The notes under the pieces: generated by a model
What the model was told of the DNA's origin: nothing
Seen by the model: only the letters and a program-made list of their open reading frames with translations
Database searches by the model: none
Program-made: the position numbers and the translations under genes
Shown: piece after piece, positions 8,301 through 27,385 of the stretch
Layout of the letters: the number at the start of each line of letters is the position of its first letter
How positions within the stretch are numbered: position 1 is the stretch's first letter
NCBI GenBank assembly: GCA_963774265.1
Contig: CAVZDU010000001.1
Coordinates: forward strand, 992,001-1,056,000
DNA: 64,000 bases
Direction of reading: 5' to 3'
DNA from: an uncultured Chloroflexia bacterium
GTDB lineage: Bacteria > Chloroflexota > Anaerolineae > CG2-30-64-16

Positions 8301-10018
8301 GCAACGGGCACATCGTTCACCGCGGTCACGTCGATGTTGACGGTCGACAGCGCTGAGTTGACGCTTCCATCATTGACCGCGAAGGTGAAGCTGTCCGACC
8401 CGTGGTAGTTGGCCGCCGGCGTGTAGACGATATTCGGAGCGACGCCGCCCAGGGCGCCGTGGCTTGGCTGGGTCAGGAGAATGTAGGTCAGCGCATCGCC
8501 GTCCACGTCGGAGCCGATCAGGGCGATGGTCTTGGCGGTATCCTCAGCCGTTGTCACAGACTGTGCGTTAGCGACCGGCGCATCGTTCACCGCCGCGACC
8601 GTGATGCTCACCGTCGCCGGCGCAGAGTTGGCCGTCCCATCGTTGACGACGAACGTGAAGCTGTCCGGCCCGTGGTAGTTGGCCGCCGGCGCATACGTCA
8701 GGTTCGGCGCGGTCCCGCTCAGCGTCCCGTGGCTGGGCCCGGTCTGCACGCTGTAGGTCAGCGGACTGTTCTCCGCGTCTGAACCGCTCAGGGTCATCCC
8801 CGCCGCAACGTCTTCATCGGTGGTCACCGCCTGCGCGTTCGCCACCGGCGCCGTGTTCGACGGCGGCGGCGTCGGCGTCGGCGTCGGCCCGCCCGTCACC
8901 GTCCAGGTGAACGACCTCGACGTGCTGTTGCCCGCATAGTCGTACACCGTCACATTCACCGTGTGCGCCCCGTTCGTCACCGGGAACACCCGCTGCCCCC
9001 CCGTCGTGAACCCCAGGTCGACGTAGAACTCGCGGCAGCTGTAGTTGCCGCAGGTCGGCGGCGCAACATAGTAGTCGTTCACATACGCCGTGTCCGATGC
9101 GCCCCCGGGCAGGTTGGCAAACTCCCACACCGTCGTCACCGGCCCTCCATCCACCGTGAAGTCCACCTGGTGCGGCGGCAGATAGTAGACGTCGTCCAGC
9201 ACCAGGTCCTTCGCCCGCACGTACAGCCCGTAGACGCCCGTGATCGTGGTCACCGTCTGCACCGTGTTGTTCTTCAGCAGCCCGATCGTCTGCAGCAGCG
9301 GCGCAGCCGTGTCGTTAAGCGGCGTGTGGAACTCGAAGCCGTTTACATAGGCCCCGCCCGCGGCCAGGATGTTCAGGTGGATGTGGTTGAAGCGCTTGCC
9401 GAACGACGTCACCGTCCAGTACACGATGTCGCCGATATACGTGTTCGGCGCAATGTAGCCGCCGCTGGTCGGGTTCGCCTGGTACTCCGCGAACTTGTCC
9501 TTGATCGCCTGCGGAATCGTGTTCTTGTCGATGTGGTGGTACTGCCAGATGTAGCCCTCCGGATCTTTCACCGCTACTTCCCAGTACAGGTCGTTCCCCG
9601 GCTGGTAGTTCTCCACATTGACCACCTGGCCGCCCGAACGGTTGAAGACGTCCGTCCCGTTGGGCGCCATGATGTCGATCCCGTGGTGGAAGTACGCCGC
9701 GCTCGTCCCGCTGCTGTAGTTCTGGTACGACTGGATCGCATGCCCCAGCGTGAATGACACATTGAACGGCCAGGCATACGTTGCGTGCGCCGCCTGCGCG
9801 TCGCCCGTGGCCAGGTGCAGATAGTCGGCCTGGTACGCGGCCTCGACGTCCTCCAACACTCGCGCTTCCTCCGGACTGGCATCAGGCGGGAAAGGCGCAG
9901 CGCGGGCATTGTCGGTGACACGGGGGAGGCCCGCCGCGCCCGCCAGGCCGGGTGACAAGATGAGGCTCAGCAAGATCAGCGCCTGCACCAGGAGCGATAA
10001 ACGACGTTTCACGAGCAC
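5381..10018 (-). CDS. Large secreted surface protein: M23-like metallopeptidase domain, 8 cadherin/Big_9-like repeats, MAM-like domain and C-terminal WxxYFDGSDVGL repeats
   Basis: Signal peptide; HHGID and HIH Zn motifs; eight ~90-aa NDAP...TYTP...DSFTF repeats; FFDDFE...AVDDV domain. Confidence 0.85.
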   Translation of the reverse strand: MLVKRRLSLLVQALILLSLILSPGLAGAAGLPRVTDNARAAPFPPDASPEEARVLEDVEAAYQADYLHLATGDAQAAHATYAWPFNVSFTLGHAIQSYQNYSSGTSAAYFHHGIDIMAPNGTDVFNRSGGQVVNVENYQPGNDLYWEVAVKDPEGYIWQYHHIDKNTIPQAIKDKFAEYQANPTSGGYIAPNTYIGDIVYWTVTSFGKRFNHIHLNILAAGGAYVNGFEFHTPLNDTAAPLLQTIGLLKNNTVQTVTTITGVYGLYVRAKDLVLDDVYYLPPHQVDFTVDGGPVTTVWEFANLPGGASDTAYVNDYYVAPPTCGNYSCREFYVDLGFTTGGQRVFPVTNGAHTVNVTVYDYAGNSTSRSFTWTVTGGPTPTPTPPPSNTAPVANAQAVTTDEDVAAGMTLSGSDAENSPLTYSVQTGPSHGTLSGTAPNLTYAPAANYHGPDSFTFVVNDGTANSAPATVSITVAAVNDAPVANAQSVTTAEDTAKTIALIGSDVDGDALTYILLTQPSHGALGGVAPNIVYTPAANYHGSDSFTFAVNDGSVNSALSTVNIDVTAVNDVPVATPQSVVTQQETPVDITLLGADVDGGALTYRVVTWPVQGVLSGDAPDLTYTPGAGYTGGDSFTFVANDGIVDSALATVDITVTETNDQPTADAQSVTTDEDTALAILLTGSDPDADPIAFAVTAAPQHGTLSGTAPGLTYTPAADYNGIDSFAFVTNDGQVDSTPATVSISVTAVNDAPLADAQAVTTAEDAAVAIALSGSDVDGDALTYAVVNGPSHGTLGGTAPALTYTPAANYSGSDGFTFSVDDGQAAPAEAVVSITVTPVNDAPMADALAVTAAEDTAFVITLTGSDVDGNALSFAAQTQPSHGSLSGTAPVLTYTPAANYNGPDSFTFTASDGTVNSAPATVSIDVSAVNDAPVAIAQAVTTEQGAAVAVMLGASDVDGDIVTYNVVTGPANGTLTGVAPDLTYTPAAGYTGLDGFIFAVSDGMATSDPATVSITVNPAGPVTVFFDDFESDLGWSRNPNGTDAATLGVWERVDPEAVDYYGYKQLGTTVSGSYDLVTGPLAGAGAGSYDLDGGVTSIRSADIALPAGSELALSFSYYLANYTNSSTADYLRVKVVGATTQTVFEELGAADDDDAAWDTFSGSLNAFAGQTIYLLIEAADASTASLVEAAVDDVLIIATGGSPNQTPTADPQSVSTAEDTALPIVLTGVDGDGNPLIFSVTGGPSHGTLSGTAPSLTYTPASGYSGADSFTFKVNDGVVDSAPATVSITITPAVTGPKLYLGSSTSGTAGGVAFEDEDILIKDMSTGAWSLYIDGSDIGLTNTDVDAFELQADGSLLMSFDTAFSLSGFAAVDDSDILRFRPDSTGATTAGTWSWYFDGSDVGLSTSDEDIDAFAILPDGRLLISTLGNVSVTGASGADEDLLVFTPTALGATTTGTWAMYFDGSDVGLSSTSNENVNGVWVDAAGKIYLTTLGAFSVTGASGDGSDIFTCTPGSLGSTTTCSWAMYWDGSVQGFAGEDTDSLSIVQ
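8891..9889. repeat. ~1-kb direct repeat copy A (M23-like module), near-identical to 11097-12148
   Basis: Long identical DNA stretches; the translation HAIQSYQNYSSGTSAAYFHHGIDIMAPNG...FTWTVTG is shared. Confidence 0.9.
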
Positions 10019-10709: not shown

Positions 10710-12332
10710 TCACCGGACGAGGGCATAGTCGAACTCGCCCACCCGGTTTGAGTTTGCAGAGACATCATCATCGTAGCGGCCGCGCACGACCCAGAAGTAG
10801 TTGATGGCGGTGTCGCCGAAGATCTTCACGGTGGGCAGTTGTAGGTCACCCGGATCGGTGTAGTGGCGATCCACACCGTCGTCCGTGTAGGGCACTTCGC
10901 CCGATCCGTAGGGCTCGCCCCAGACATCGGCAACCTGGTTGCCCTCGCCCGCGGCAGGGTCGAAATACGGGTCGGACGCGCGCCACACTTCGTAGTAGGG
11001 GTTCTCCTGCCTGCCCGGCCAGGTCAGCGTGACATATGCGGCGTCGGGCGCGGGCTCGACGGCAACATCAGGCGCCACGGGTGTGAATACCGGTGCGCCC
11101 GTCACCGTCCAGGTGAACGACCCCGACGTGCTGTTGCCCGCATAGTCGTACACCGTGACATTGACGGCATGAGATCCGTTCGCCGCAGGGAAGGCCCGCT
11201 GCCCCGCCGTCGTGAAGCCGAGATCGATGTAGAACTCCCGGCAGCTGTAGTTGCCGCAGGTCGGCGGCGCAACATAGTAGTCGTTCACATACGCCGTGTC
11301 CGACGCACCCCCGGGCAGGTTGGCAAACTCCCACGCGGTGGTCACCGGGCCGCCGAAGATCGAAAAGTCCACCTGGTACGGCGGCAGGTAGTACACGTCG
11401 TCCAGCACCAGGTCCTTCGCCCGCACGTACAGCCCGTATACGCCCGTGATCGTGGTCACCGTCTGCACCGTGTTGTTCTTCAGCAGCCCGATCGTCTGCA
11501 GCAGCGGCGCAGCGGTGTCGTTCAGCGGCGTGTGGAACTCGAAGGGATTGACGTACGCGCTGCCCGCGGCCAGGATGTTCAGGTGGATGTGGTTGAAGCG
11601 CTTACCGAACGACGTCACCGTCCAGTACACGATGTCGCCGATGTACGTGTTGGGTGAGATAAAACCACCGTTCACCGGGTCAGCCTGGTACTCCGCGAAC
11701 TTGTCCTTGATCGCCTGCGGAATCGTGTTCTTGTCGATGTGGTGGTACTGCCAGATGTAGCCCTCCGGATCCAGCACTGCCACCTCCCAGTACAGGTCGT
11801 TCCCCGGCTGGTAGTTCTCCACGTTGACCACCTGGCCGCCCGAACGGTTGAAGACGTCGGTGCCGTTGGGCGCCATGATGTCGATCCCGTGATGGAAGTA
11901 CGCCGCGCTCGTCCCGCTGCTGTAGTTCTGGTACGACTGGATCGCATGCCCCAGCGTGAAGGAGACGTTGAACGGCCAGGCATACGCCGCATGCGTCGCC
12001 TGCACACCTTCCAGGGCCTGCAGCGTTTCCTGGGCCTTCCAGTCCGGCACGGCCAGCGGATTGCCCGTGGCCAGGTGAGCGTAGCTCGCCACGTACCGAT
12101 GCTCGACGTCCTCCAACACTCGCGCTTCCTCCGGACTGGCATCAGGCGGTAGTGGTGGGATGCCCGGTTCAGTCGGGGCAGGAGAGGCCATCGCGCCGGC
12201 TGTTGCCAGCGTGAGCAGGATGATGCATACGAGCGAGAGCCACGGCATGGTACGGCGTGACAGCCCCCGGGCATTGATTTTTATGAAGCGAGAATTGCGG
12301 TCCATCTGCTCCCTCCTGTCAGGATCTTTCAT
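10710..12332 (-). CDS. Secreted M23-like peptidase-domain protein with FN3-like C-terminal domain ending SNRVGEFDYALVR
   Basis: Signal peptide; same HHGID/HIH module as the 5381-10018 protein; LTW...YEVWR...YFWVVR domain. Confidence 0.85.
   Translation of the reverse strand: MKDPDRREQMDRNSRFIKINARGLSRRTMPWLSLVCIILLTLATAGAMASPAPTEPGIPPLPPDASPEEARVLEDVEHRYVASYAHLATGNPLAVPDWKAQETLQALEGVQATHAAYAWPFNVSFTLGHAIQSYQNYSSGTSAAYFHHGIDIMAPNGTDVFNRSGGQVVNVENYQPGNDLYWEVAVLDPEGYIWQYHHIDKNTIPQAIKDKFAEYQADPVNGGFISPNTYIGDIVYWTVTSFGKRFNHIHLNILAAGSAYVNPFEFHTPLNDTAAPLLQTIGLLKNNTVQTVTTITGVYGLYVRAKDLVLDDVYYLPPYQVDFSIFGGPVTTAWEFANLPGGASDTAYVNDYYVAPPTCGNYSCREFYIDLGFTTAGQRAFPAANGSHAVNVTVYDYAGNSTSGSFTWTVTGAPVFTPVAPDVAVEPAPDAAYVTLTWPGRQENPYYEVWRASDPYFDPAAGEGNQVADVWGEPYGSGEVPYTDDGVDRHYTDPGDLQLPTVKIFGDTAINYFWVVRGRYDDDVSANSNRVGEFDYALVR
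11097..12148. repeat. ~1-kb direct repeat copy B (M23-like module)
   Basis: Near-identical to 8891-9889 apart from a short insertion (NPLAVPDWKAQETLQALEG). Confidence 0.9.
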
Positions 12333-12515: not shown

Positions 12516-15500
12516 TTAGCCCTCATCCCCCGGGACCAGCGCGAAGTCGAAATCCCCGGTCCGATTCGACGGCGCGGTTTGCACCGCACCGCACGCGGAG
12601 GCCGGCAACACGAGGTAGCTGTTGTTGACCGCCGTATTGCCCAGTCCGCCCGCGTGTGCAAAAGTCGTGTCTGATTTCCAGGTGCAGCCGTTGGCCTCCG
12701 TGCATGCGGCGCCGGGTGCAAAGTAGGGATCGTCTGCATTTCGCCATACCTGGTAGTTGAACGCGCCTGGAACCGCGCTCCAATCCAGCTGCACCTGCGG
12801 GCCGTAAACCAGGGCGATCCACACATGGCTGACCGCCGGCGGGGTGGCACACTCGGTGGGCATCCGCGTCGCCGGGTCGCCGAAGAGGAGGAAGGTGTCC
12901 AGCAGATCGAGGCTCGACCCGGTCGCAAAAAGGTCGAGCTTGCCGGCGGCGGTGCCTGCACCCACCGTACCCAGGTTGTCCTTGAAAATCGCGTCGAAAA
13001 AGCCGCGGTCCAGGTAATCGTGGCCCGAGGCAACCCCCAGGCCGGTCGGCGACCAGCTCGCCACTGCGCCGCGGCCGCTCGGCCCGGGTGATCACCTCGG
13101 CCAGGGCCTCTTGCCCATCGGCGATGGGATCCGGATAGTGGTAGTAGCCCTCCCTGCAGTCCATCCCCAGCACCACGGGCAGCCTGCCGTCGTTCTGGAG
13201 CAGCGGCACGTCGGTGGTCGCTGAGCAGTCCTTCCGAGGCCCAGCCGAGGCGTAGCCGTGGCCGATGTAGTTGACGATCAGTGCGCCGGCGTTGATGCCG
13301 GCCTGGATGGCCGTCCTGGCCTCGGCCGTGGTCGTGTGGGTGACGCCGTAGTACACCTTTTGGGCCTGGTACGGCGCGGGCAGGTGGCTCGCCAGCAGGT
13401 CATCCGACATCAGGGCAAAGTCGCCTCCGCTGTCGACGTTGTCGGCCACCGCCAGCACCTGCTGCTGCCAGTCGGCGGTCGGGCTGGCCTCGTAGGCGAT
13501 GATCTTGTCCACGAAGGCGCCGGCTTCGGCGGCGCTGTTGACCGCCAGGCGGCCGAGCATCAGGTCGGGGAGGGTGTCTGCGCCGGCCACCGTCACGTAG
13601 CGGTTGTCGGCGGCGGTCTCGCCCATCCAGGGATCGACCGGGCGCCAGGTAGGGCGGGATGTAGCTGGTGCGGCCGTAGCCGAGGTAGTTCTTGGGATCG
13701 TAGTGGCCGTCCCCCAGCAACACGACGTAGGAGGGCGCGGGCGCCTGCCAACTGGCGTAGGCGTAGGCCAGGAAGTCGCGGATCGCGATAGGACTCACGA
13801 GTCCGTACCCAAACTCATCGTAGACGTCCTGCACATCGACCGCCATCGCGCGCAGGCCTTGCGCCGCCCGGTGGTCGCGCAGCGCCGCAGCCTGGGTCAG
13901 GAAGTCCTCGTGGGTGATGATGATATGATCCGCTGCGTTGGCTGTTGCCCGCAGGTTTGACGCCGTATCTGCTTCGATGTCGGTCTCCGCCTCCACCGTG
14001 TGATAGGCTGTATCTGTGCCGGTGTCTTGGAGAACCCAGTAGTCGATTGACTTGCCTTGCGCGACCGCGTCCTGGAACTGTGCTGCGTATCCCGATCCGG
14101 ACGTGACTACGGCGACGCCTGTGATCCGCTTGACCGCGGCCGGGTCGGTCACGTCGTAGACGGCATAGTCGCTCGCCTTGCTGCCGGTGAACCCCGCCAC
14201 CTGATACTTCCACGTGCCGGCAGTGACGTAACTGAACGCCAGCTCGCCGCCTTCCGCGGTGAAGGTGTTGGCAAATTCGAGCTGCGCCCAGTCGATGTAG
14301 AGGATGTCGTACGCGTACCCGGTGTCCGCGACCGCTGTGACCACGAGGGTGTTGGTCCCCGCGACCAACACGCCCGCGGGGACCGCCATCTCCAGGACCT
14401 GCCACGCGACCCCGTCCCACGTCACGTCGCCCACCTGCGTGCCGTTCAGGGTGATCCTGGCGTGATGGTCGGGGTTGACCGCGTTTTGCAGATAGCCCAG
14501 CATGGCCAGGGTCAGCGTCGCCGGCCCTGCGTCCGGCGCAGCCAGCGTGAAGGTGTGGGTCCAGCTGGGCCGGCTCGGCCGGTAGATGTAGTCCCACAGC
14601 CAGCGCTCCAGGTCTTCGTCGCCGGGCGCGAAGGAGAGGTAGTACGCGTTGACCTCCATATGGCGCTCCGCGGTGTGGGTGCCAGGCATCTCTGCTGCGC
14701 CGGGCGCCCCGTCGCGCGCCGCCATGCGCAGGCCGGCCGCTGCCGCCGAGGGGTCGTAGGTCAGCCAGTAGACGTTGCCGGCCGTGTACTTGCTGTCGAC
14801 CGCCTGCCCGTAGAAGACCAGGGCTTCGCCTGATTCGAAGTAGCTGTCGCCATCCCCTTCCTCGTGGATCGCGACCTCGCTGCCCAGGTTGTAGAGCTTG
14901 AACGTGCTGGGGACCAGGGTGTCCACCGGCAGGCCGGCCTTCTGCAATTCGGTGTAGGTGAGCTTGTAGAAGCCGTCCGCCTGCACCTTCACCCGCCAGC
15001 CGGGCGCGGGCGGCGTCCAGGGGGTGGCGTCGATCCCGGCTGCCACAGCCTCGACAGAGGGTGGCGCAGAGGCCCGCCAGCTGCGGCCGGCTTCGTAGTT
15101 CAGCAGCTTCCCGCGCAGGAATTCCTCATACGCGGCGGAGTCTCGTGCCGGCGCTTGGCGAAGGGTCTCTGCGGAGGTCGCGCCTTCGAACCCAATCTCG
15201 ACCCGCAGCGATTCATAGATTGTGAGTGCCTGGGCCGCCGGATCGTACTGCACCGGGTAGGCCGCGATGCCCAGCCACGCGCTGCTGGCGCATCACCCCG
15301 TCGCTTGCCAACTCGGCCAGACGCGTCGGGATAGGCTGCCTGCGCCCGCGTAGATCGCCGGATCCTCTTCGATCACCATGGTTGGCTCAGGCAGGGCCGG
15401 CGCGGCGTTCCCTGCCGGCGGCTCCCATTCGACCACTTGGGTTGGCGCGGGGAGGGGTGGGGCAGGCAGGCGTCACTGTGTGGGCCTTGCCCGGCGTCAC

Positions 15501-15857
15501 GCGCACGGTGACGTCGACGCCGGGGGGCGCGGCGATCGTCTCGGTCCAGAAGGGCAGGCGGGTGCGCCGGCCTGGCGAGGAGTGTCCAGCCGGGCAGCGA
15601 GACCTGCACGTACGGTCTGGCCGCCGGCGGTGGTCGGCTCCAGCGGCGAGCTCGCTCCCAGGGCACGGCCACCTCGAAAGCGACCCCTGAGGCGTGGAGG
15701 ACAGCACACGTACGGGTTGGAGCTTGGAGGTTGAAGGTTCAAGGTTGGTGGTCGGTGGGATCAGAGAACAGGGCTGTGTTCGCACCGGCCCCGGTGCAAG
15801 CATCCCGCTCAGCAGGACCAGCAGCAAAGCAATGGTCAGATTCTTGCCTCGTAACAT
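12516..15857 (-). CDS. C25 family (gingipain/PorU-like) cysteine peptidase, several frameshifts
   Basis: Signal MLRGKNLTIALL; GFYKLTY, VDVQDVYDEF, YVVLLGDG, LMLGRL, VNYIGHG (catalytic His), GMDC (catalytic Cys), LLFGDPA; ends SNRTGDFDFALVPGDEG. Confidence 0.85.
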
Positions 15858-15915
15858 CTCAATTCTCCACAGGTCGATAACATCTCCCGATCGCACGCAC
15901 CGCTCATAAGCACAC

Positions 15916-15961
15916 GTGCCGGGCACTCGGCGATCCTTCGGATCGTCGGAGTGCCCGGCAC
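15916..15961. repeat. GTGCCGGGCAC-type hairpin repeat (related copy at 12409-12441)
   Basis: GTGCCGGGCACTC...GAGTGCCCGGCAC inverted repeat between the kinase-like and C25 genes. Confidence 0.6.
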
Positions 15962-15982
15962 TTGCAGATATTCCAGGTCTCT

Positions 15983-16910
15983 TCACGCCTCCCGGATCAG
16001 CGCCATCGGGTCGTCTCCCAGCCGGTAGCTGAGCGTGTAGAACGGCACGCGCTCGGCCAGGAGCGCCAGGCGGTCCAGGATGGCGGACACCGCGGCCGGC
16101 CGGTAGTAGGGGATGAACGCGGTCTGCAGCAGGCGGGTGACCCCGTCGAAGGGCGCTACCGCCGCAAGGGGCTGTGCGGCGTCTCTATCCAGGAAGAACA
16201 ACTTTTCCAGCGGCACGCCCAGCGGCGCGCACAGGTCCGGATTAACATGCCAGGGCGTGCCGAAGATCCAGAAGCGTCCATCGAGGTAGCGCAGGATGAC
16301 CTGGTCCTCCCCCAAGACCGTGGCCGAGGGATTCGACGCGAGGGACGCGGTCAGCGTCGACTTGCCGGCCCCTGAGGAGCCCGTGAAGCAGTATCCCTTG
16401 CCATCGACCGCCACGCCTGCGGCATGGAGGATGGCGTCGCCGCAGCCCGCCAGCCAGTTGGCAAAGAGCCTGATGCCTAGGCCCTGGAGAGGATAGGCGC
16501 CCTCCCCATTGCTCGTGGAGAATTCGCCGCACACCTCTCCGTCAACAAAGCCGGGGTCGACGATGGCCAGCCGGGGCGGCGATTGACGCGGGGCGACGAA
16601 GACGTAGCGTCCGGCCTCGTCCAGCCACAGCTCCCATGTCTCCGTCACACAGAGGGGGATGCGTGTTGCCGCAGCCTCGGGCAGCGGCCCGTCCCGGACG
16701 CGGAGGAACCAGGTCACCGGAGATCTCCGGCGACTCGTGCCAACCACAGTTTGGCTTGTCCTCGGAGGTCTCTGGTTGAAGGAACCTGGCGTGGCTCGCG
16801 GGCGCCACCAGGTGCAAACCGGACCCTTGCGCATCCAGCCAGAGTCGAAGGTTAGCCACGCGCACGCCCATCCGAGTCCGCGCGGCACGCTCCCAACCAC
16901 TTCCCCACAC
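15983..16910 (-). CDS. HPr-kinase-related P-loop protein (ScmC / RiPP-kinase-like), frameshift near 16705
   Basis: LHAAGV, GSSGAGKST Walker A, LGEDQVILR and FGTPWH; N-terminus lies in ORF 16542-16910 (MGVRVANLRLWL). Confidence 0.78.
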
Positions 16911-16913
16911 TCA

Positions 16914-17071
16914 TCACACGGGGGGCGCATAGCAGCCCTGCTCCAAACTGCACCCAAGAACCCCCTCGGGGTCCAGATTGGGGCTGCTGTGGCACACCGC
17001 CAGGACCGAGTTCCTGGATCTACCAGGCGTACCTTTTTCAACTTGGGCGCTTCGTATCGTTTCTTGTTCAT
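16914..17071 (-). CDS. Putative RiPP precursor peptide (~52 aa), split by an indel near 17015
   Basis: GGAG RBS; leader MNKKRYEAPKLKKVRL (YxxPxL), then in the next frame RNSVLAVCHSSPNLDPEGVLGCSLEQGCYAPPV*. Confidence 0.72.
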
Positions 17072-17079
17072 GAAGCTCC

Positions 17080-18182
17080 TCATCTCCATATGCCTGCAAG
17101 AACGGGGCGCTGGAACTCAGCAGCTCGCAGTCGCCCCAGCTCGCATACATAAGTCCACCGGCGTCTCGTCGTCGCCGTGGACGGCCTGCGACCAGCCGGG
17201 ACACTGGGTGCAAAGACCCCCGGCCGTGCAGGTGCGGCACGCGGTGTCCAGGCGCCGCTGCTGCTGCCGCAGAGTGCCCAGCGCCTCCCACGCTTCCTCG
17301 AAGCGCATCTGCCGCAGGTCGTAGCTGGGACGGCGGGACATGGTGCAGATGCTCATCCTGCCCGCGCTGTCGACATGAAAGGTTTGGAGCCCGGCGCCGC
17401 AGCTGTAGACATATTCTGCGCGCACCAGCTGGCCGCCGAACAACGCGGCCGTCTCCTCCCACTGCCGCCGCCGCTCCGGGTCCTCGCGGTCGAGCGCAAG
17501 CATCTCCTCCAGCGAGAGCCGGTGGTCGTAGGGCTGCTCCCCCCCGTCCAGGCGGGGCCACAGCGTGCCGTCGTAGCGAAACTTGACGCCGACCTCCTCG
17601 GCCAACGTCTGCATTTCCGCCAGCTCGTGGCGGTTGGTCGTCAGCAGGACGGATTTCAGGGTCAGCGGGAGGCCCCGCTCCAGGAGGAGCTCGATGCCCC
17701 GCCGGCAGCGGGCGTACGATCCCGGGACCTGCGTCACCGCTTCGTAGGTCTGCTGCGTGGCGCCGTACAGCGTGATTTCGATCGACTGCGGCCTCGAGTA
17801 GGCCAGCAGGTCCGCGATGGCCGGGGTCAGCAGCGTCGCGTTGGTGAAGAGCGAGACGAGCATCCCCCGCCCCCTGGCATGGCGGTAGATCTCCGCGAAA
17901 TCGGGCCGGAGCAGCACCTCGCCCCCGGTCAGGAGCAGGAACAGGCAGCCCGCGTCCGCCATCTGGTCCAGGAGCCCTCTCGCCTGCGCGGTCGTCAGTT
18001 CCTGGGAGCGCAGCCGCCCGGCTGCCCGCGGGCTGGTTGATGTAGCAGTGGACGCACGCCAGGTTGCAGCGCTCGGTGAGCTCGAGCGTGCCGCCGAGAG
18101 GATAGCGCCGCCCTTCCAGCGGCGCCAGCAGCTCATCGCCCCACTCGCCGAGGTCCAGCTCCGGGCATGAAGTAGAATCCAC
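17080..18182 (-). CDS. Radical SAM/SPASM domain peptide maturase, frameshifts near 18020 and 17150
   Basis: ELTERCNLACVHC (CxxxCxxC), LTGGEV, FTNA; SPASM cysteines CGAG...SIC...CRTCTAGGLCTQC...YVC. Confidence 0.88.
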
Positions 18183-18185
18183 GTC

Positions 18186-18478
18186 CTAGACCCTTCGCAC
18201 CGCGCCGACTGCCGTCATCTCGACCAGAAAGCTGTCCAGGTCGGCAGCGAGCGACCTCCGGGTCCGCGTCGTACTCCTCCAGCAGGCCGGACCGGAGCTC
18301 GGCCAGCGTCGCCGGCCGGTCGAGCTTGCTCCCAGATCGAGGCGCCCACGCTGTTCAGCGTGTAGATGCAGTCCATGTCGGCCACATCCTGGTGGATCGG
18401 CACCAGCACCATCTCGTCCACGATCTTGCGGAAGATGAAGTCGGGATTCCGCTCGTACCGCGCCTCTTGTTGCGTCAA
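18186..18478 (-). CDS. PqqD family RiPP recognition element (frameshifted)
   Basis: FRKIVDEMVLVPI...IYTLNSVGASIWEQL...LLEEYDA...DLDSFLVEM. Confidence 0.88.
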
Positions 18479-18488
18479 ACCAGGTCTC

Positions 18489-19008
18489 CTACGCCAGGTG
18501 TCTTGAGAATGCCGGCAGCCTTCTCGTTAATCCCGCAGCCAGCCGGTAGGGGCGGCTGCCGCCGTGACCGCGGCGGAGATGCCCGAGCGCGACCGCAGCG
18601 CCGCGGCCCAGCCCAACACGCGCAGGCCGGCCCGACTCATGTCGATGGGTGCGCCCGCACGCTCGATCGCGGTCACCCGGCCGTAGACCTGCGCTGCAGG
18701 GAGCACGCCATCGGGCAGGGAGACCTGGTCCCCCTGCACCGTGAAGCGGATCCCATCCCGGCCGATCATCCTGCGGATGACCCGGTGGACCAGCGGGCGG
18801 CCGTGCTCGCGGTCACGAGCACGAGGTCGCCCAGCCGGATCGAGCCCGGATCGGCCGGGTGCACCGTCAGGACATCGCCATCGCGCACCAGCGGCGCCAT
18901 GCTGGCGCCGTGTGCCTCGAACGCGCACGGCTGCGCCGGCCTTCAGGACCTCGGCGCTGAGCCGTGCAAAAGGCGAGGTCGACGGGACGAAATGCTGTCC
19001 ACCGTCAC
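18489..19008 (-). CDS. S24/S26 signal-peptidase-like protein (frameshifted, ends approximate)
   Basis: FEAHGASMAPLVRDGDV (catalytic Ser), LGDLV, LVHRV and QGD motifs across frames. Confidence 0.75.
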
Positions 19009-19048
19009 TGCGGGTCCATCCTGTGCGCCCGCCAAGCGAGCGCCCTTC

Positions 19049-21145
19049 TTACTCGGTCGACCCCTGGGCTCCGCGGCCTGAAGCTTTCCGGTCAGGCTTG
19101 CCTCAACCGGTCCCGACAGGGATACCCCACCGTTGATGTCCACGCTCTCCAGCCAGTAGTAGTAGGCCGGCCTCTTATCCCTTCCCACGATGGTATCTGT
19201 GTAGGTGTAGGCCGCGCCACCCAGGACTGCCAATAGCCTGCGCCGGGATCAGCTCGATGTTGATCAAGGTCTCGCTCGCCGTCGGGCGCTGTGGCGCGGT
19301 ACAGGTTGAAGCCCAGGTTGTCGACCTCGCTGGCCGTCTCCCAGGACAGTACTGTGGCCCCGGCTCGCCTGTCTGCATCGGCCGTGAACGAGAGCAGGTC
19401 GACCGCCGTTGGCTGCAGGTGTCCTTGCCGTGTTGTTGGCCGTGTTCGGGTCGGTCGTCGTCGTGGTCACGGTGACGGTGTTGCTGTATCTGCCCCGGAC
19501 CCAACGTCACGTTGATGCGTACGTCCACTTGGCTGTGGCGTAACAGTGACGGGGGCAATGGCGTCAGGAGCTGGCAGCTGAGCATCTGGGTAGCGCTTGC
19601 TGTAGGTGCAGCTGCCCCTGGTTGTCGTGCCGCTGCTGGGACCAGTTGCGAGGTGTAGCTGGTGTAGTGACACGTGGCGGGCAAGGTGTCACGAACGTGA
19701 GCTGTGCCGGAACCCGGTCCCCGTTGACGGTGACGATCCGGTAGTAAGGGGTCCGCGTGACAAAGCCGCGGCACGTCTTGCTCGCCCGTATGTCAGCCGT
19801 CGGCGCAGTGATCTCTGCCCACAGGCAGGCCACGTTGTCCGTGTCTTCCTGGGTGATGAATTCCGTGGCGATCGCGCCAGTATAAGCACTTGAGCAGTCC
19901 GGATCAGCAGTCGTCTGTGGCTGGAAGCCCAGGATGTTGATGGTGTAGTCCCATCGGGGCAGGTGAAGGTCGCCGTGGCGCTGCCCTGGTTGACCGTGAC
20001 CTTGTCGGGGCAGGACGCTGGTGCCCGGATAGACACATGTCCCCGCCTCGTTGGGGTTTCATCCAGAATGAAATTCGGGGTGAAGCTAAGGCTAGCTGGA
20101 GTCGGGGTCGACCCGTCGTTGCAGGTGAGGGGCACGGTTATCGTCAGGTCCACGTTGGTGAAGGCGTTCGCGCTGCCCCCGCCGTCAGCAGTCGCGTAGA
20201 TCTGGTTGTTGTAGTGGGTGAACTTGCCCAGGTAGAAGGGGGTATTCGACGCCGGGGTAACCGGGCCGTCGTTGCCGTCGAAGCCAAAGCCGCTCTGTTC
20301 CGCGAAGTTGGTGAGGTCGCAGCTCAGGCTTTGCCAATTAGACGGGTAGTACGCATCTCGTCCATAGCGCACCTGGTTCTCGTCGTTGGTCGGGCCGGTC
20401 TGCACCCGCTTCGTCTCCCGCCGCTCATGGCGGTGGGCGTATTCCCGTTCCCCGTCGCCCAGCGATTGCACCGGGCGCCCGCCGTCTCGTTCTCGTGGTT
20501 CGGTGCGATGCCACGGTACCGCCGGCCGTGGCTGCTGTCGGCCAAGATTTGATTCTCCGTGAGCCGTTGCACCGCACCTGTAGTGTTGACACAGGACGCA
20601 TACATACGCCGTTGTTGGCCAGGGACGACGGTGGTCAGAGCGACTTCCGTGTAGTTGCTCCAGACCACCGCTCGAACAGAATCGCCATGCGCTGTAGTCG
20701 GACAGGGCCACTGCCGCCCGGTTTTGTTGTAGATCTCGAATGACAGAGGGGTTATTAGTGGACTGTTCGTGACCTGGTCATAGACGGTACTCCGAGATGA
20801 TCAGGCCGGTCGTCGAGGTAGCAGCGTGCCGTGTAGGAGCCCAGACCGGTCCAGACAGGCGAACCAGTAGTCCTGTCCATCGGTGAAGGTGGTGGACCCA
20901 TCGGCATCGCCCCGGCATGCTGCCGCGAAGCGGACCATTGTACGATCGCACGCGGCGGGTAGAGCGCGGCGCTGCGTGACCTGGCGGTGGCCCGCCGATC
21001 ACGCCGAGAGTGCTCGGGCCGGCGGCGACGCTGAAACCGCCCCAACCCCGTCCACATTGCCCATGGTAAACGCGACCACGACGCCGGCCAGCACCAGCAG
21101 CACGACGACCGCCACCACTGTCGACAAATATTTGCGCTTCTTCAT
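19049..21145 (-). CDS. Secreted protein: choice-of-anchor-K/THxN-like domain, DUF11-like domain and C-terminal PTAVxLxSF domain (heavily frameshifted)
   Basis: Signal MKKRKYLSTVVAVVVLL; FYLGKFTHYNN...DETP; TTTDPNTANN; PTAVDLLSFTA...WETASEVDNLGFNLYRA...YYWLESVDING. Confidence 0.65.
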
Positions 21146-21378
21146 CGGTTCTTCCTCCCTTTGCTAACCGTAACGGCGGCGTGCGATCGCCGCGGCCATG
21201 ATTCCACGTGTTGCGATCATCGTCTCGGAGCGGATCGATTCATAGGCAGCCCTCCCTGGTGGGACACCATCCTCATCCGGACGCGGGGCGCTTCGACGGT
21301 GGTGGACACGCAGCCCGCGCGCCGGCCGATAGGCCAAGGGTATCATAACGCATGCGGGTTGCAACGAACATTACCACA
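21119..21378 (-). promoter_or_regulatory. Conserved promoter/5' leader, copy 1
   Basis: Block-wise match to 23093-23352; TGGTAATGT extended -10-like element and GGGAGG RBS. Confidence 0.65.
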
Positions 21379-21634
21379 TGAGCCCCAGCTTTGCAAATGG
21401 AAAGTTGCGGTCACGGGCTTTCACGCGGCGCCCGGAACATCTTCCCGCCAGCCGTCAGGGGGAAGGCAGCATATACATTATGGGGAGAGAAGATCAACGC
21501 AAGTATCAAAAGATGGAGAGGCGCTTAACAGTTTTTTCATAATTGGCCCCGGCTGGCAGCTCCCCAGGGGCTGGCCCCCTCTTCTGCCTGGCAGAGGAAG
21601 GAGCCAGCCCCTCGAAGGGGGCCGTCGCGGCGCG

Positions 21635-23120
21635 CTACTTTACTTCCGTCATGCTTGGGGGCTCCTTGAGATCGAGTCCCCGGGCGGCCCTTGCCTCGAT
21701 GGGACCGTACAGGTCACTCAGACCATTGATGTTGACGGCCTCCAGCCAGTAGTAGAAGGTCCAGTTTCGGGGGAAGCTGGTGTCCTGGTATTCATAGGTC
21801 GGCGCCCGGAGGAACTGCCGGGTAGACTTGCTAAGGATCAGATCCGGTCGTTGATCCTGGTCCGCTCACCGTCGACTTTCTTGGCGCGATACAGGTTGAA
21901 GCCCAGGTTGCTGATCTCGCTGGTCGTCTCCCAGGCCAGCACGATGGCTTTCCGCTCGGCCGTCGCCGTGAATGACCCCAACTCGACCGCCGTCGGTACG
22001 GCAGTCGAACAGGAGTTGTTCCCTGAGATCGGGTCGACCTCGAATCCTGCTACGCTCGCCATGTTCGCCAGGTTGTCCGGCGTGGCCGCTGCGTTGTACC
22101 GCGGATCGTCCGAGCCGACTGCAGGTGTGCCTTTCCAGATCACCACATTCAGGGTGATGGCTGAGGCCGTAGCCGGGCAGGCCAGGTTGGCGCCGATGTT
22201 GCACGTCACGATATCCCCGTATCCCTGGCAGCCGCCAATGTCGTCGGAGCACTTTTCTGTGGGGTCCCGGCGCGGACGTGCAGCCGGTGGCCAGCGTCCC
22301 ATTGACCTTGAGCCAGACGGGCAGGTCGTCCGTGATTTTGTACCCGGAGGACTGGAAGCAGGGGGTTGTGTACTGCACATTGGACACGGCGATCTGGTAG
22401 TTGAACTCGCCGCTCGCCGGGATTGTGGTCACGGAGGACGACTTCGTGCACGTCAGGTCTACCTGGTTGAGAGTGACCTCAAACGGGACCGACTGACACT
22501 TACATTTGGATCCAACATCCGGGCAGCCATTATTTCCTGGGCAGTTATTGCCTACATTATTGTCGTACGCCGAGCAGGTGTTAATTACGCCGGTCGTATT
22601 GGTCGCAGTGCACTGGATCGTGACCGGACCAACTTCCTTCGTGACCGGGGAAGCTGAACTCATGTCACCACACATGTCTCCGTTCTTTTCGTTATCCCAG
22701 TAGGGTGGAAAAGGTGGAGTGTTGGTCGGTTGCAGGGTGCCGTCCAGATAGGTCGAGTAGCAAGCCCCGGTGCGGAGCATCGCCGCCGTCGGTCGCGATC
22801 CAGGCTGTGGGGTCGTAACGGGTTGTTGCAGTAGACTGGAACTCAGCCAGGAATATGTACGTTCCTGTGTCGCCTACAAACATGCAGGGTTCAATTACCT
22901 TGAGGGTGCTAACGGATGAAACCGCCGTGTCCCCTGCCGAGCATGGGGTCGTCTTTGAACATGTATCCGCAAAGCATGAGCCCTGCCCCCAGTCTATCTG
23001 CTGAGGAAATTGCGACTCCGCCGCTGCCGGCTGCCCTCCATTGACAAGGCCGGCGACCAGGGCCAGCGCCAACAACAGGACGGCGGCTGTCGCTGTCGAC
23101 AAATATCTGCGCTTTTTCAT
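21635..23120 (-). CDS. Secreted Cys-rich protein with DUF11-like domain and C-terminal PTAVxLxSF domain (frameshifted)
   Basis: Signal MKKRRYLSTATAAVLLL; about 20 Cys; DLTCTKS...ITDDLP...DPISGNN; PTAVELGSFTA...WETTSEISNLGFNLYRA...YYWLEAVNING. Confidence 0.72.
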
Positions 23121-23352
23121 TTGTTCTTCCTCCCTAAGTTAACCGCAACGGCGGCGTGCGATCGCCGCGGCCATGATTCCATATGTTGCGATCATCGTCT
23201 CGGAGTCGATCGATCCATAGGCGCTTCCCCTTCCACGACATCATGCCGAATCCGGACGCGGAGCGCTTCGACGGTGGTGGACACGCAGCAGCACGCCTGC
23301 CGGTAAGCCAAAAGTGTCATAGTGCTTGTAGATTGAAGCCAATATTACCACA
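23093..23352 (-). promoter_or_regulatory. Conserved promoter/5' leader, copy 2
   Basis: Homologous to 21119-21378; TGGTAATAT extended -10-like element. Confidence 0.65.
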
Positions 23353-23631
23353 CAATCGTTTGCTACGCGAACATAGAGATGCAATCATAGAATCAAGCGA
23401 TATTGTGATCGCACGATCGTGCGATCGCCGCCCTCGGAACGCCATCCCTCCCCGGCCGCCAGGAGGGCGCCAGCCTGCAGCATGCGCGCGCACGGCATAC
23501 ACCTAGCGTAGCCATTATGGAGGAGGAAGATTAACAGTGCTATGAAGGAATCGTCCGCGACGTGACACATTTTTCATCTTCGGTGTTCCGCAAACGGCCT
23601 GTCCGCGATCGTCCGCTGCACCGCCGCGCGC

Positions 23632-23660
23632 TTGCCGCCCACACGGCCGGCAGCTATAAT
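23632..23660 (+). promoter_or_regulatory. Sigma70-type promoter
   Basis: TTGCCG-17 bp-TATAAT, with a GTG 7 nt downstream. Confidence 0.7.
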
Positions 23661-23667
23661 GCTTCCC

Positions 23668-24840
23668 GTGACTGAACCGCTGGAGACGCCCGAAGCCGCC
23701 TACCGCCTGCTCGCCGCGACCTGGGACCCCGCCCGGCGCCCCGCCTCGGATGCGATCCCGTGGGCCGAGGTGCTGAGCCTGGTTGAAGGCAGCAACGTTG
23801 CGCCCGCGGTCTACGCGGCCGCGCGGGATATGGCAATGCCCGCCGGGGTGCACGACGCGCTGGAGCAGGCCTTCTACCGCTCTGCCGCGGCGAACACGCG
23901 CTGCCTGCACCAGCTGGCCGGGGTGGCGGACGCGCTGGCTCGCACCGGCGCGCCGCTCCTGCTGCTCAAGGGCGCGGCCCTGGCCGAGACGCTGTACGGC
24001 GATCCCGGCCTGCGCACGATCGGCGACATCGACCTCCTGATCCCCCGCGAGGCCGTAGGGCCGTGCCGGGACGCGCTGCTCGGCCTCGGGTACCGGCCTA
24101 CGCAGCTCGAGGAGCAGCCAGGCAGCCTGCTTGCCACGAGCAACCAGGAGGCCTTCGAGCCGCCGCCGCCCCACCGGACCCTGGTCGAGCTGCACTGGCA
24201 CATCCTGGACGTCCCCTACTACCTGCACCACATCCCGGTGGCGTGGTTCTGGGAGAACTCCGAGGCGGCCGAGATCGCGGGCCGGACCTTCCGCGTGCTC
24301 ACCCCCGAGGCCAATCTCATCTACCTGCCCGCCCACCTGGCGTTCCACCACCGGTTCCAGCGGCTGCACTCGCTGTTCGACCTGGCCCTGCTGATCGCAA
24401 GGAACCGGGAGAGGATCGACTGGGCCAGGGTCGCCGCGGCCGCACACTCCTTCGAGCTCCTCACCGCGCTGGCGGAGACCCTCGACCGGTTGGCCCGGTG
24501 CTGGCCCACGCTGCCGCTCGACGAAGCCCGCCGGCAGGTCGCCGCGGGCGCGCCGTTGGCCATGGACGCCCGGATCTACCGGCACCTCATCGCGGCGCCG
24601 CGCAGCACCCCCCTGCGCTTTTACACGACCCTCGTCACTCTGCCCGATCTCGCGGCCCGCGTGCGGTATGCCCGGCTCGTCGTCTTCCCCCAGCCCGGCT
24701 ACATGCGGAGCCGGTACCGCGTGGGGGCGGATTGGCAGCTGCCGTACTGGTATCTCCACCGCCTGGCGAGCGGGCTGGCCCGGTTCGCGGCCGCGCTGCC
24801 GCCGCGCGACGGATCGACCGGATTGAAGATTGAAGATTGA
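23668..24840 (+). CDS. Nucleotidyltransferase family protein (NTP_transf_5-like)
   Basis: LLLKGAALA, RTIGDIDLL, VELHW and LFDLALL motifs. Confidence 0.85.
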   Translation: MTEPLETPEAAYRLLAATWDPARRPASDAIPWAEVLSLVEGSNVAPAVYAAARDMAMPAGVHDALEQAFYRSAAANTRCLHQLAGVADALARTGAPLLLLKGAALAETLYGDPGLRTIGDIDLLIPREAVGPCRDALLGLGYRPTQLEEQPGSLLATSNQEAFEPPPPHRTLVELHWHILDVPYYLHHIPVAWFWENSEAAEIAGRTFRVLTPEANLIYLPAHLAFHHRFQRLHSLFDLALLIARNRERIDWARVAAAAHSFELLTALAETLDRLARCWPTLPLDEARRQVAAGAPLAMDARIYRHLIAAPRSTPLRFYTTLVTLPDLAARVRYARLVVFPQPGYMRSRYRVGADWQLPYWYLHRLASGLARFAAALPPRDGSTGLKIED

Positions 24841-24855
24841 AGATAGGAGTCCTGC

Positions 24856-27385
24856 ATGACCTCACCTGTTGAGCTGACTGCTGCGCAGCTGCGCCGGCGG
24901 TTTGATCCCGCCCGCTTTGACTTTGCCTCGACCGCGGACGCGCCGGACCTGGAAGGCATTATCGGCCAGGACCGCGCGGCGGCCGCGATCGAGTTCGGGC
25001 TGGAGATCCCCTACCCCGGGTTCAATGTCTTCGCCACCGGGCCCACCGGCGCAGGCAAGACGAGCATCATCACCCGCTACCTGGAGGATAAGGCCGCGGC
25101 TAGGCCGGTGCCCCCCGACTGGGGTTACGCGCACAACTTCGCTGAGCCGGACCGGCCGATCGCGCTCCGCCTGCCGCCCGGCGGCGGCAACCTGCTGCGG
25201 GATCAGGTCAACACGCTCCTGACGCAGGTCGCGGAGACGCTGGACAAGGTCTTCGTCAGCGATCAGTACGTGCAGAACCGCAACACGCTGGGCCGCCAAT
25301 TGGACCAGGTGCGCGCGGAGCGGTTCCGGGCATTGGATGTGACGGTGAAGGAGCGCGGCTTCACCCTCACGCGCGGCGAGGCCGGGTTCATGTTGACCCC
25401 GGTCAAGGACGGCCAGGCGCTGACGCCCGAACAGTATGAGGCGCTGCCCGAGGCCGAGCGCGATGCCATCAACGAGCAGGGCCAGGGCGTGCAGGAGCTG
25501 CTGGAGCGGACGGTCCACCAGGTGCAAGAGCTGGAAGAAGGCGCGCGCGAGCGGTTGGCAACCATGGACCGCGAGGTCGCGGGTGCGGCGATCCAGCCGT
25601 TGTTCGAGCGGCTGTTAGAAGAGTACGCGGACTGGGAGACGGTGACGGCCTACCTCCTGGGGGTTCACAGCCATATCGCCGCGAACAATACGGATTTTCG
25701 CGGCCAGGCGCAGCCGGCGCCGGCTGAGGCAAGCGATGAAACCCCGCCCTGGCTGCGCACGCGGCCGGGCTCGCCCCTCGATCGCTACCGGCTGAACGTG
25801 ATCGTCGACAACAGCGGCCTGCACGGCGCGCCGGTGATCGTGGAGACCAACCCGACCTACGCCAACCTGGTCGGCCGGGTGGAGATGCGCGCACAGTTCG
25901 GCACCCTGGTGACCGACTACCGTTACATCAAGCCGGGCGCGCTGCACCGCGCCAACGGCGGCTATCTGCTGCTGGATGCGCGCACGCTGCTGCGCCAGCC
26001 CATGGCCTGGGAGGCGCTCAAGCAGGCGCTGCGCAACCGCCGCATCCGCATGGAGGACATGCTGCAACCGGTCAGCGTGCTGGCCACCACCACCCTCACC
26101 CCGGAGCCGATTCCGCTGGACGTCAAGGTCGTGCTGATCGGCGACCTGCAGACCTACTATGCCCTCTACGCGCTGGACGAGCAGTTCGAGAAGCTGTTCA
26201 AGGTGCGCGCCGACTTCGCCGTCGAGATGGCCTGGACGACCGAAAACGAGCAGAAGATCGTCCAGTTCATCCGCAACCGCTGCGACGAGTAGGGCCTGCC
26301 CCACTTCGACATGAGCGCGGTGGCCAAGGTCGTCGAGTACAGCGCGCGGCTGGTGGAGGACCAGGACAAGCTCAGCACACGCTTTGCGCTGATCACCGAC
26401 CTCATCCAGGAGGCGGCTTTCTGGTCCAGCCGGGCGGGCCATGCGTTGGTCACCGGCGAGGATGTGCGCAAGGCCATGGACGCGCAGAAGAACCGCTCCA
26501 ACCAGTACGAGGAGCGGATGCGCGAGATGATCACGGACGGCACGATCATGGTGGACACGACGGGCGCGGTGGTGGGCCAGGTCAACGGCCTGGCCGTGCT
26601 CGAGCTGGGCGACTACACGTTCGGCCGGCCCAACCGGATCACCGCGGTCACCTACCAGGGCCGCGCCGGGGTGATCAACATCGAGCGCGAGGCGCGGATG
26701 AGCGGCCGCACCCACGACAAGGGCATGTTGATCCTCGCCGGTTTCCTCGGCGGCCGCTACGCGCAGGACAAGCCGCTCAGCCTGTCGGCCAGCATCGCCT
26801 TCGAGCAATCCTACGACGGGATCGACGGCGACAGCGCCTCCTCGACCGAGCTGTACGCGCTCCTGTCCAGCCTGGCCGAGCTGCCGATCAAGCAGGGGAT
26901 TGCGGTCACCGGCTCGGTGAATCAGCGCGGCGAGATCCAGGCGATCGGCGGGGTGATCTATAAGATCGAGGGCTTCTTCGATGTGTGCAAGCCGCGGCCG
27001 CGGGCCTGACCGGCGAGCAGGGCGTGATCATGCCCGCGTCGAACGTGGCCAACCTGATGCTGCGCGACGATGTGGTGGACGCGGTGGCCCAGGGCAAGTT
27101 CCACATCTGGCCGGTGCGACCGTGGACGAGGGGATCGCGCTGCTGACCGGCGTGCCGGCGGGCGAGCGCGATGCGGACGGCCGCTATCCCCCCGACAGCG
27201 TCAACGGCCGCGTGGACCACAAGCTGTTCGACCTGGCGGATCGCCTGAGCAAGTTCGGCCAGCGCGACAAAGACAACGGCCGCAACAAGGAGCACAAGGA
27301 CGAAGAGGGCGAGCCTGGGGAGGAGCCGGACGAGCCGCCGGCGCCCCCTGAGCCGGGTCTGCCGGGGGAAGCGCAATCCGTGTAG
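24856..27385 (+). CDS. Lon-like ATP-dependent protease (AAA_32 plus Lon_C); in-frame TAG at 26290 and frameshifts near 26995 and 27115
   Basis: [37 protein letters not shown]...DGDSAS (Ser), TGSVNQ, KIEGFF (Lys). Confidence 0.85.

Follow-up and report, generated by a model that had tools for sequence, protein, structure and literature searches.

The DNA analysed here is a stretch of 64,000 nucleotides (G000:C1:992001-1056000, hereafter the window) from a 5.5-Mb Chloroflexota genome, which is assembled into 10 contigs and has a G+C content of about 63%. Between positions 12516 and 24840 the window carries a compact cassette of peptide-maturation genes flanked by genes for secreted proteins and for a cysteine peptidase of family C25. 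Genes were called from a listing of open reading frames (ORFs), three-frame reading and Pfam/NCBIfam scans, in which 57 ORFs of the window were covered. On the minus strand, in the direction of reading, a gene for a secreted Cys-rich protein with a signal peptide and a C-terminal PTAV domain (21635-23120; tblastn, three-frame reading and a hidden Markov model (HMM) of the domain) is followed by a second secreted protein with the same C-terminal domain (18943-21145; NF038131/NF038125, tblastn with the upstream protein of locus L023 and the domain HMM) and by a small S26/S24 peptidase of the archaeal, SpI-like type (about 18527-19010, start approximate; homology to an intact orthologue). Next come a PqqD-type recognition element (RRE) for peptides that are ribosomally synthesized and then modified post-translationally (RiPPs) at 18186-18478 (three-frame reading and orthologue tblastn), a radical S-adenosylmethionine (SAM)/SPASM peptide maturase at 17080-18182 (Pfam Radical_SAM and SPASM) and the precursor peptide gene at 16914-17071 (three-frame reading and tblastn with the L002 precursor, E 1e-7). 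An HPrK-like P-loop protein, probably of the Pfam ScmC family (15983-16871; weak HprK_rel_A/B matches, homologues with PF27840) and a secreted PorU-like C25 cysteine peptidase (12516-15857; Pfam PF01364, tblastn with intact orthologues) complete the series. Divergent from these genes, on the plus strand, lies an intact PF14907 (NTP_transf_5) nucleotidyltransferase (23632-24840; Pfam E 1.4e-50). Every gene which the first-pass annotation had named in this region was recovered within 12516-24840 by the Pfam/NCBIfam scans and three-frame reading. The genes for the C-terminal-domain protein, S26 peptidase, PqqD, radical SAM enzyme, precursor, HPrK-like protein and C25 peptidase form one conserved unit in Anaerolineae, and in gene content and likely biochemistry the small genes are very probably a radical SAM-containing variant of the LPP/ScmC peptide-maturation toolkit, LPP being the linear polyphosphorylated peptides.

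The conservation of this unit was followed in 70 loci retrieved from species-representative genomes with an alignment of 17 HPrK-like homologues; L-numbers refer to loci retrieved for comparison in this way, except that L071 and L072 belong to the genome of the window itself. The 40 loci with the most similar HPrK-like proteins, mostly from metagenome-assembled genomes (MAGs) of Anaerolineae, are referred to as the close clade, and all synteny counts take in only those loci which extend far enough. The first-pass annotation had placed the cassette in a locus of C25 and PTAV-domain genes, and this linkage is conserved throughout the close clade: a C25 gene lies within 6 kb downstream of the HPrK-like gene in 33/33 loci, and in 29/29 the upstream side has a gene with the PTAV domain at its end. 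The radical SAM gene is present upstream in 34/34 loci and PqqD in 32/32, while PF14907 was found in 13 of the 19 loci that are at least 15 kb long. The 30 remaining loci are spread over many phyla, including a Methanosarcina record (L050), and contain the radical SAM gene in 25/26 and PqqD in 19/23 cases. A quick maximum-likelihood tree of the HPrK-like proteins, in which the long branches L023, L068, L069 and L070 are unreliably placed, recovers the close clade with a value of 97 in the Shimodaira-Hasegawa-like approximate likelihood ratio test (SH-aLRT); of its rows, 35 are linked to C25 and 5 break off at a contig end, and none is without C25. In the same tree, linkage to C25 recurs in one group of Acidobacteriota and in a further group of Chloroflexota. 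Two rows of the close clade carry the labels Syntrophorhabdus and Bacillota and may be mis-binned contigs.

The phyletic distribution of the components was surveyed in 251 Anaerolineae genomes, among which relatives are not independent samples and absence from a MAG is not proof of absence. C25 peptidases are present in 177 of these genomes. The PTAV domain occurs in 144, and 140 of these are C25-positive, so that just 4 of the 74 genomes without C25 contain it. When the 30 listed families are considered, 18 have both PTAV and C25, one has PTAV only, four have C25 only and seven have neither. This co-occurrence is partly trivial because some of the PTAV domains sit on C25 proteins themselves. 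The HPrK-like gene is present in 64 genomes, 61 of them with C25, and C25 accompanies all 14 of the genomes in which the HPrK-like match scores strongly. Among the C25 matches listed (150 of 452), at least 20 of the 64 HPrK-positive genomes have a C25 gene on the same contig within about 10 kb, and these include more divergent HPrK-like types. No HPrK-like match was found in 116 of the 177 C25-positive genomes. The peptide system therefore accompanies certain C25 genes as an accessory; it is not generally required and cannot be a general anchor for C25.

The surroundings of the unit were examined through 73 ORFs flanking it in eight close-clade loci. These flanks carry polysaccharide-synthesis genes, with a sugar-1-phosphate nucleotidyltransferase in 6/8 loci, a DegT aminotransferase in 4/8, a dehydratase/epimerase in 4/8 and Bac_transf in 3/8. 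A Wzc-like kinase is present in 4/8 loci and a low-molecular-weight phosphatase in the same four; PF14907 is seen in 5/8 and cadherin/Big_9 adhesins in 3/8. The Wzc-like gene also occurs in L010 and L023. In the window itself, no polysaccharide genes directly adjoin the cassette.

Each of the genes in 12516-23120 changes reading frame when compared with its intact orthologues, and at least 20 such changes are present in these 10.6 kb. The minimum numbers are seven in the C25 gene, one in the HPrK-like gene (located between 16705 and 16761), one in the precursor, two in the radical SAM gene (near 18020 and near 17150), two each in the PqqD and S26 genes, four in the gene at 18943-21145 and three in that at 21635-23120. 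In all likelihood these changes are patchy consensus errors, i.e. indels of the assembly. Five stops occur in 2282 homology-supported codons, each of them at a point where the reading departs from a frame and later resumes it, so that indels but no true nonsense codons are seen. A decaying pseudogene array in the 12.5-23.1 kb block, with frame changes that are real, would fit their dense packing next to intact ORFs of 4.6 and 1.6 kb (5381-10018 and 10710-12332, together 6.2 kb) and of 1.2 kb (23632-24840), and the two further HPrK-like loci of the genome could compensate. We regard such decay as unlikely, however, since the damage is of the indel type only and the broken genes retain 50-86% identity to their orthologues. 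The adjoining gene for a Lon-like (LonB/LonC-type) protease (24856-27385, plus strand), outside the block, is likewise broken, with an in-frame stop at about 26292 and frame changes near 27000, so that the breakage is not limited to the cassette. The completeness of the genome is only 84% despite its assembly into 10 contigs, and in about 8% of its 10-kb bins long coding ORFs are as scarce as in the bin which contains the cassette.

Small ORFs between the radical SAM and HPrK-like genes were found in 58 loci. The precursor of the cassette is 52-55 residues long and consists of a YxxP leader followed by a core with three conserved Cys and a near-invariant Ser. In the alignment of 36 close-clade precursors, the Y, P, V and L of the leader (YxxPx[LV]xx[VI]) and two of the Cys are invariant, whereas the third Cys and the Ser, located three residues past the first Cys, are kept in at least 90% of the sequences; the tails past the last Cys are variable. 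The precursor of the window has a YxxPxL leader, a three-Cys core and a C-H-S-S-P motif, and fits the family once one frame change is allowed. A C-terminal Ser is present in 22/26 precursors outside the close clade as compared to 2/36 within it, so that there are two precursor subtypes. The L-x-x-C junction of the precursors was also considered as a lipoprotein lipobox and rejected, the leader being charged and without a hydrophobic core, and the -1 position being mostly V, T or F.

The radical SAM enzyme carries the CxxxCxxC motif in its N-terminal piece and is 61-71% identical to its orthologues; its matches to NCBIfam models of radical SAM/SPASM maturases are partial (StsB 105 bits against a cut-off of 625, PapB 62 against 340, AlbA also partial). 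The intact PqqD orthologue at L010:8337-8624 matches Pfam PqqD with E 8e-15. A sequence search of the PDB identified LppB (9x8z chain B, E 8.7e-6) as the closest solved relative of the RRE, ahead of TbiB1; the similarity is low and indicates relatedness, not orthology. For the S26-like peptidase, the intact orthologue at L010:7817-8323 matches TIGR02228 (sigpep_I_arch, E 5e-10) and Peptidase_S24, and the S26 HMM has matches in 55/70 related loci.

The HPrK-like protein belongs to a family with hundreds of homologues at 55-84% identity and is matched weakly by HprK_rel_A/B (E 1e-5 to 1e-6). Its P-loop is invariant in the alignment of 17 homologues, and most of the 120 listed homologues, the product of the window included, carry a precomputed annotation with PF27840, the family named ScmC. 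A structure model of an 84%-identical homologue, with a predicted local distance difference test score (pLDDT) of 76, matches the folds of phosphoenolpyruvate (PEP) carboxykinase and HPr kinase with E 5e-7 to 4e-5. HPr kinase and PEP carboxykinase share a common P-loop kinase fold. A PDB sequence search with the HPrK-like profile returned P-loop matches only.

The PF14907 protein reads in a single frame and is 56% identical over 380 residues to its counterpart in the neighbourhood of L023. In three loci from WOR-3 and Omnitrophota records (L040:2990-4621, L041:3889-5970 and L063:415-2493), PF14907 is fused to an S24-like peptidase, with a GNAT acetyltransferase domain between the two in 2/3 of the fusions. 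These fusions tie the transferase to the peptide system. A further candidate at L064:10593-17825, a 2411-codon frame running from an S24-like peptidase into a DUF11/CARDB/C25 giant, was rejected as fusion evidence because its second part starts with its own signal peptide; this open frame probably represents two genes that happen to lack a separating stop, or else an error of the assembly.

The C25 gene of the window was traced by tblastn of the intact orthologues of L003 and L023 together with three-frame reading of 15200-15860. Its pieces at 13400-15253, 12523-13626 and 12516-13064 match PF01364 with E 6e-8 to 6e-32, and the PorU-like models NF033707/NF052324 are matched below cut-off. The reconstructed architecture comprises a signal peptide, a C25 propeptide-like region, a carbohydrate-binding module (CBM)-like region and the catalytic domain, and closes with an FN3-like domain of a second type (see below). 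Intact orthologues are 1000-1400 residues long and show a signal peptide, the C25 propeptide (PF08126), a CBM-like region and the catalytic domain. The catalytic dyad (H874 and C907) is invariant in 31 orthologues, and its motifs are visible in the window ORF 12523-13626. The PorU model NF033707 aligns with about 700 residues of the intact orthologues at 213-271 bits against a cut-off of 420.

The PTAV domain is 98 residues long and was searched with an HMM built for it. In the window it is matched at 18946-19466 and 21638-22428, where it ends the two secreted proteins upstream of the cassette; the protein at 18943-21145 consists of a signal peptide, a choice-of-anchor-K/THxN-like domain and the PTAV domain. 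Besides the gene directly upstream of the cassette, the domain ends several C25 proteins and other neighbours such as M23-like proteins. Its structure model (pLDDT 94) is an FN3-like sandwich, for which Foldseek returned generic FN3 matches only, none below E 1e-3, and no specific likeness to the C-terminal domain (CTD) of the type IX secretion system (T9SS).

The closest comparison is with the LPP clusters of Bacillota (LppA/K/B/S/D/N; Popov et al., Nat Commun 2026, PMC13381572). In these clusters, which are located in capsular polysaccharide loci, a precursor whose leader contains YxxP is accompanied by an HprK-like kinase which polyphosphorylates Ser3 of the core, a discrete RRE, a leader peptidase of the archaeal SpI-like type, a pump resembling MsbA and a PF14907 transferase (PMC13381572). 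The cassette shares with them a discrete RRE of the YxxP-binding type, with LppB as best solved match (E 8.7e-6), a protein which by sequence and fold would be an HPrK-like kinase, and an archaeal-type SpI-like small peptidase adjoining the RRE, intact in the L010 orthologue and frameshifted in the window. The PF14907 transferase at 23632-24840 corresponds to LppN; a polysaccharide-locus setting is seen in related genomes and a Ser lies close to the presumed start of the core. In contrast to the LPP clusters, whose product is linear, the cassette adds the radical SAM/SPASM enzyme (34/34 close-clade loci) and a three-Cys core, and no MsbA-like exporter was found in the 57 window and 73 flanking ORFs. 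Of the LPP leader motif YxxPxVLxHQxIxFETxxS, its leader shares only YxxPx[LV] and is otherwise different in its conserved positions. The cassette is fixed to C25 and PTAV-domain proteins and occurs in Chloroflexota and other phyla, whereas LPPs were called restricted to Bacillota (PMC13381572). Neither radical SAM nor SPASM, C25, gingipain or Chloroflexi is mentioned in that paper, though its supplements may list related clusters; our literature search found no paper on the combination of radical SAM enzymes with C25 peptidases.

The first-pass annotation had compared the cassette with kinase and nucleotidyltransferase tailoring of lasso peptides and with the SynChlorMet cassette (ScmC, ScmD, ScmE, ScmF), and both comparisons proved apt, PF27840 being named ScmC and LppB being the closest solved RRE. 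With SynChlorMet the cassette has in common an HPrK-like protein, most homologues of which are annotated with PF27840 (ScmC), and the PqqD-like and radical SAM/SPASM proteins beside a small peptide, and its distant loci include the Methanosarcina record (L050). However, the scores are low (ScmC 16-17 bits against a cut-off of 125, ScmD 17.9 against 100, ScmE 85.5 and ScmF 88.8 against 400), the cassette has one radical SAM enzyme instead of two, and the S26 peptidase, C25 and PTAV genes are additional. No paper containing the word SynChlorMet was found in the literature search. The paeninodin and pseudomycoidin type of lasso tailoring shares the pair of kinase and PF14907 transferase, the lasso-type RRE and the YxxP leader. 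A C-terminal Ser is the site used by HPrK-like kinases in lasso peptides, and it is this Ser which is present in 22/26 distant-clade precursors and in only 2/36 of the Anaerolineae clade. In contrast to the lasso systems, the cassette has a radical SAM enzyme, and neither an Asn-synthase-type cyclase nor a lasso B2 protease was found among the 57 window ORFs scanned.

PorU, the sortase of the T9SS, shares with the C25 enzyme the catalytic domain with an invariant His/Cys dyad and is similar to it over about 700 residues; in addition, a beta-sandwich domain forms the C-terminus of the neighbouring secreted proteins and of some C25 proteins. The differences are the score of 213-271 bits as compared to the required 420, the Chloroflexota hosts and the generic FN3-like fold of the PTAV domain. 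The maturases of ranthipeptides and sactipeptides (PapB, StsB, AlbA) likewise combine a radical SAM/SPASM enzyme and a partner RRE with a core that contains Cys, but the StsB (105 against 625) and PapB (62 against 340) scores are low, and these families have no kinase, SpI-like peptidase or linkage to C25 among their features. With all NCBIfam scores far below their cut-offs, the cassette is a relative of these systems and a member of none.

From these comparisons a pathway can be proposed. The PqqD-type RRE would bind the YxxPxL leader, as suggested by its homology to LppB and to lasso B1 proteins, and the radical SAM/SPASM enzyme would cross-link the core via the three conserved Cys. By analogy with LppK, the HPrK-like kinase might phosphorylate the near-invariant Ser at the third position past the first Cys, while the SpI-like S26 peptidase, by analogy with LppS, might take off the leader. 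The PF14907 transferase could further decorate the product. On balance we favour the view that the peptide and the C25 enzyme act jointly at the cell surface, as judged from the tight, recurrent gene linkage and the envelope context, and that it is probably not a free antibiotic. The conserved unit and the polysaccharide genes in the flanks of the eight loci point to an action at the surface or matrix with C25, in which the peptide may serve as substrate, regulator or partner.

Several points weigh against this interpretation. The kinase role, the radical SAM chemistry, the cleavage site and the transferase role are proposed by analogy only, and all NCBIfam matches remain far below the curated cut-offs. 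Outside the close clade, C25 is present in only 7/24 loci. Synteny does not mean contact between peptide and C25, and their linkage could simply reflect co-regulation within one envelope island. Neither the 57 window ORFs nor the 73 flanking ORFs of the eight related loci yielded an exporter of the ABC or MsbA-like kind, and the product may therefore stay in the cell. The reading of the indels as assembly errors is in turn weakened by their uneven spread: at least 20 frame changes fall within 10.6 kb and none in the adjoining ORFs of 6.2 kb (together) and 1.2 kb, which leaves some probability for real decay of this copy.

It is possible, though rather unlikely, that the product is an ordinary exported RiPP, i.e. 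a signal or antimicrobial, and that the C25 enzyme is a co-regulated envelope or biofilm neighbour or an extracellular second-step protease, like NisP for nisin. This would agree with the absence of C25 from the toolkit clusters in 17/24 loci outside the close clade and with the free processed peptide which LPP clusters gave in a heterologous host (PMC13381572). The variable tails after the last Cys could be trimmed in such a pathway, and an M14 carboxypeptidase recurs nearby (in the window, L010 and L022). However, the first-pass annotation had seen no lasso cyclase, ABC exporter or immunity gene in the window, which the scans bear out, and the 73 ORFs flanking the eight loci likewise gave no exporter and no immunity gene. 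A dedicated leader peptidase is already present, and the link to C25 is invariant in the close clade and recurs in Acidobacteriota and other Chloroflexota, which exceeds the expectation for mere co-location in an island.

The first-pass annotation had also suggested that the peptide could serve the C25 enzyme as an anchor, cofactor or signal. In type IX secretion, PorU joins cargo to a linker of anionic lipopolysaccharide (A-LPS). As an anchor, by analogy, the matured peptide, its N-terminus freed by S26, would be the acceptor to which the PorU-like C25 enzyme transfers PTAV-trimmed surface proteins. The strict retention of the PTAV protein, cassette and C25 as a unit (29/29 and 33/33) is in line with this idea, as are the PTAV domains carried by several C25 proteins themselves, in the way that T9SS components carry the CTD. 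The occurrence of PTAV in 140 C25-positive genomes as compared to 4/74 C25-negative ones, the corresponding family pattern (18 with both, 1 PTAV only, 4 C25 only, 7 neither), the resemblance of C25 to PorU over about 700 residues and the polysaccharide genes in the flanks are also compatible with it. Nevertheless an anchor role appears improbable. The 116/177 C25 genomes with no HPrK-like match indicate that C25 and PTAV mostly work without such a peptide, and the co-occurrence of the two is partly trivial, as noted above. In addition, the PTAV fold is generic and FN3-like with no specific likeness to the T9SS CTD, the PorU HMM score lies below its cut-off, no peptide exporter was found in the scanned window or the flanking ORFs, and the genome itself encodes only about five PTAV-domain proteins.

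A more elaborate form of this idea, a ribosomal 'sortase anchor', seems very improbable. In this form the peptide would be tied through a phospho-Ser to surface polysaccharide by the PF14907 transferase, and C25 would join PTAV-trimmed proteins to its free N-terminus. If true, a gene-encoded peptide would play the part that the A-LPS linker has in type IX secretion; to our knowledge, these Chloroflexota have neither an outer membrane nor LPS. Finally, it is highly improbable that the C25 protease is kept inactive until needed by the cross-linked phosphopeptide, acting as its cognate inhibitor or latency factor. Protease inhibitors are known among constrained RiPPs, for instance microviridins and some lasso peptides, and cassette and C25 are adjacent one to one (33/33). 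However, C25 already comes with a propeptide domain (PF08126), and whereas C25 is secreted, the peptide would arise in the cytoplasm, with no exporter seen in the scanned ORFs.

The favoured interpretation, an action of the peptide with C25 at the cell surface, has consequences beyond this locus. The toolkit of RRE, HPrK-like kinase, SpI-like peptidase and PF14907, also seen with paeninodin, was described only in 2026 (PMC13381572). Our comparison reveals that its radical SAM version is widespread outside Bacillota, and that in Anaerolineae it is firmly joined, as one unit, to a gingipain/PorU-like peptidase that is secreted and to a surface protein, set in polysaccharide loci in the related genomes examined. 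This gives a testable hypothesis on the role of such peptides, namely cell-envelope or matrix assembly rather than antibiosis, and points to a possible function for many unexplained C25 peptidases beyond the phyla with type IX secretion.

The same genome contains two further HPrK-like loci. L071 (C5:33001-53000) has a PTAV gene, PqqD, an IS200-like transposase, a metallophosphoesterase and two C25 genes, and a radical SAM gene was not found there. L072 (C7:446001-464000) comprises an S26-like peptidase, PF14907 and a Wzc-like kinase beside an alpha-2-macroglobulin gene; without radical SAM and C25 genes, it looks LPP-like.

Downstream of the C25 gene, on the minus strand, lie two intact ORFs. 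The first, at 10710-12332, encodes a secreted M23-like protein (Pfam scan), relatives of which are located near C25 in nine related loci. The second, at 5381-10018, encodes a 1545-residue secreted protein with an M23-like N-terminal part as in the former and eight Big_9/cadherin-like repeats. The C-terminal FN3-like domain of the second type, distinct from PTAV, is present in the C25 protein (12516-12860) and the M23-like protein (10710-11120) and closes with the short conserved motif G-[ED]-F-D-[FY]-A-L-V. It ends at least five other proteins of the genome (C1:178913-179926, C7:509230-510450, C6:362679-363449, C3:189322-191589 and C6:18834-19328) and was not found in the 70 related loci.

A gene for an M14 zinc carboxypeptidase is present further downstream of the cassette at 3409-4863, and such a gene also lies near the cassette at L010:3380-4387 and L022:735-1742. 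This enzyme might trim the variable tail of the peptide, or it might be unrelated. On the other side of the cassette, at 27994-28097, the window contains an 18-bp tandem repeat of 4.8 copies with 95% matches, located directly after a 185-residue ORF (27441-27998) for which no Pfam match was obtained at E <= 1e-4.

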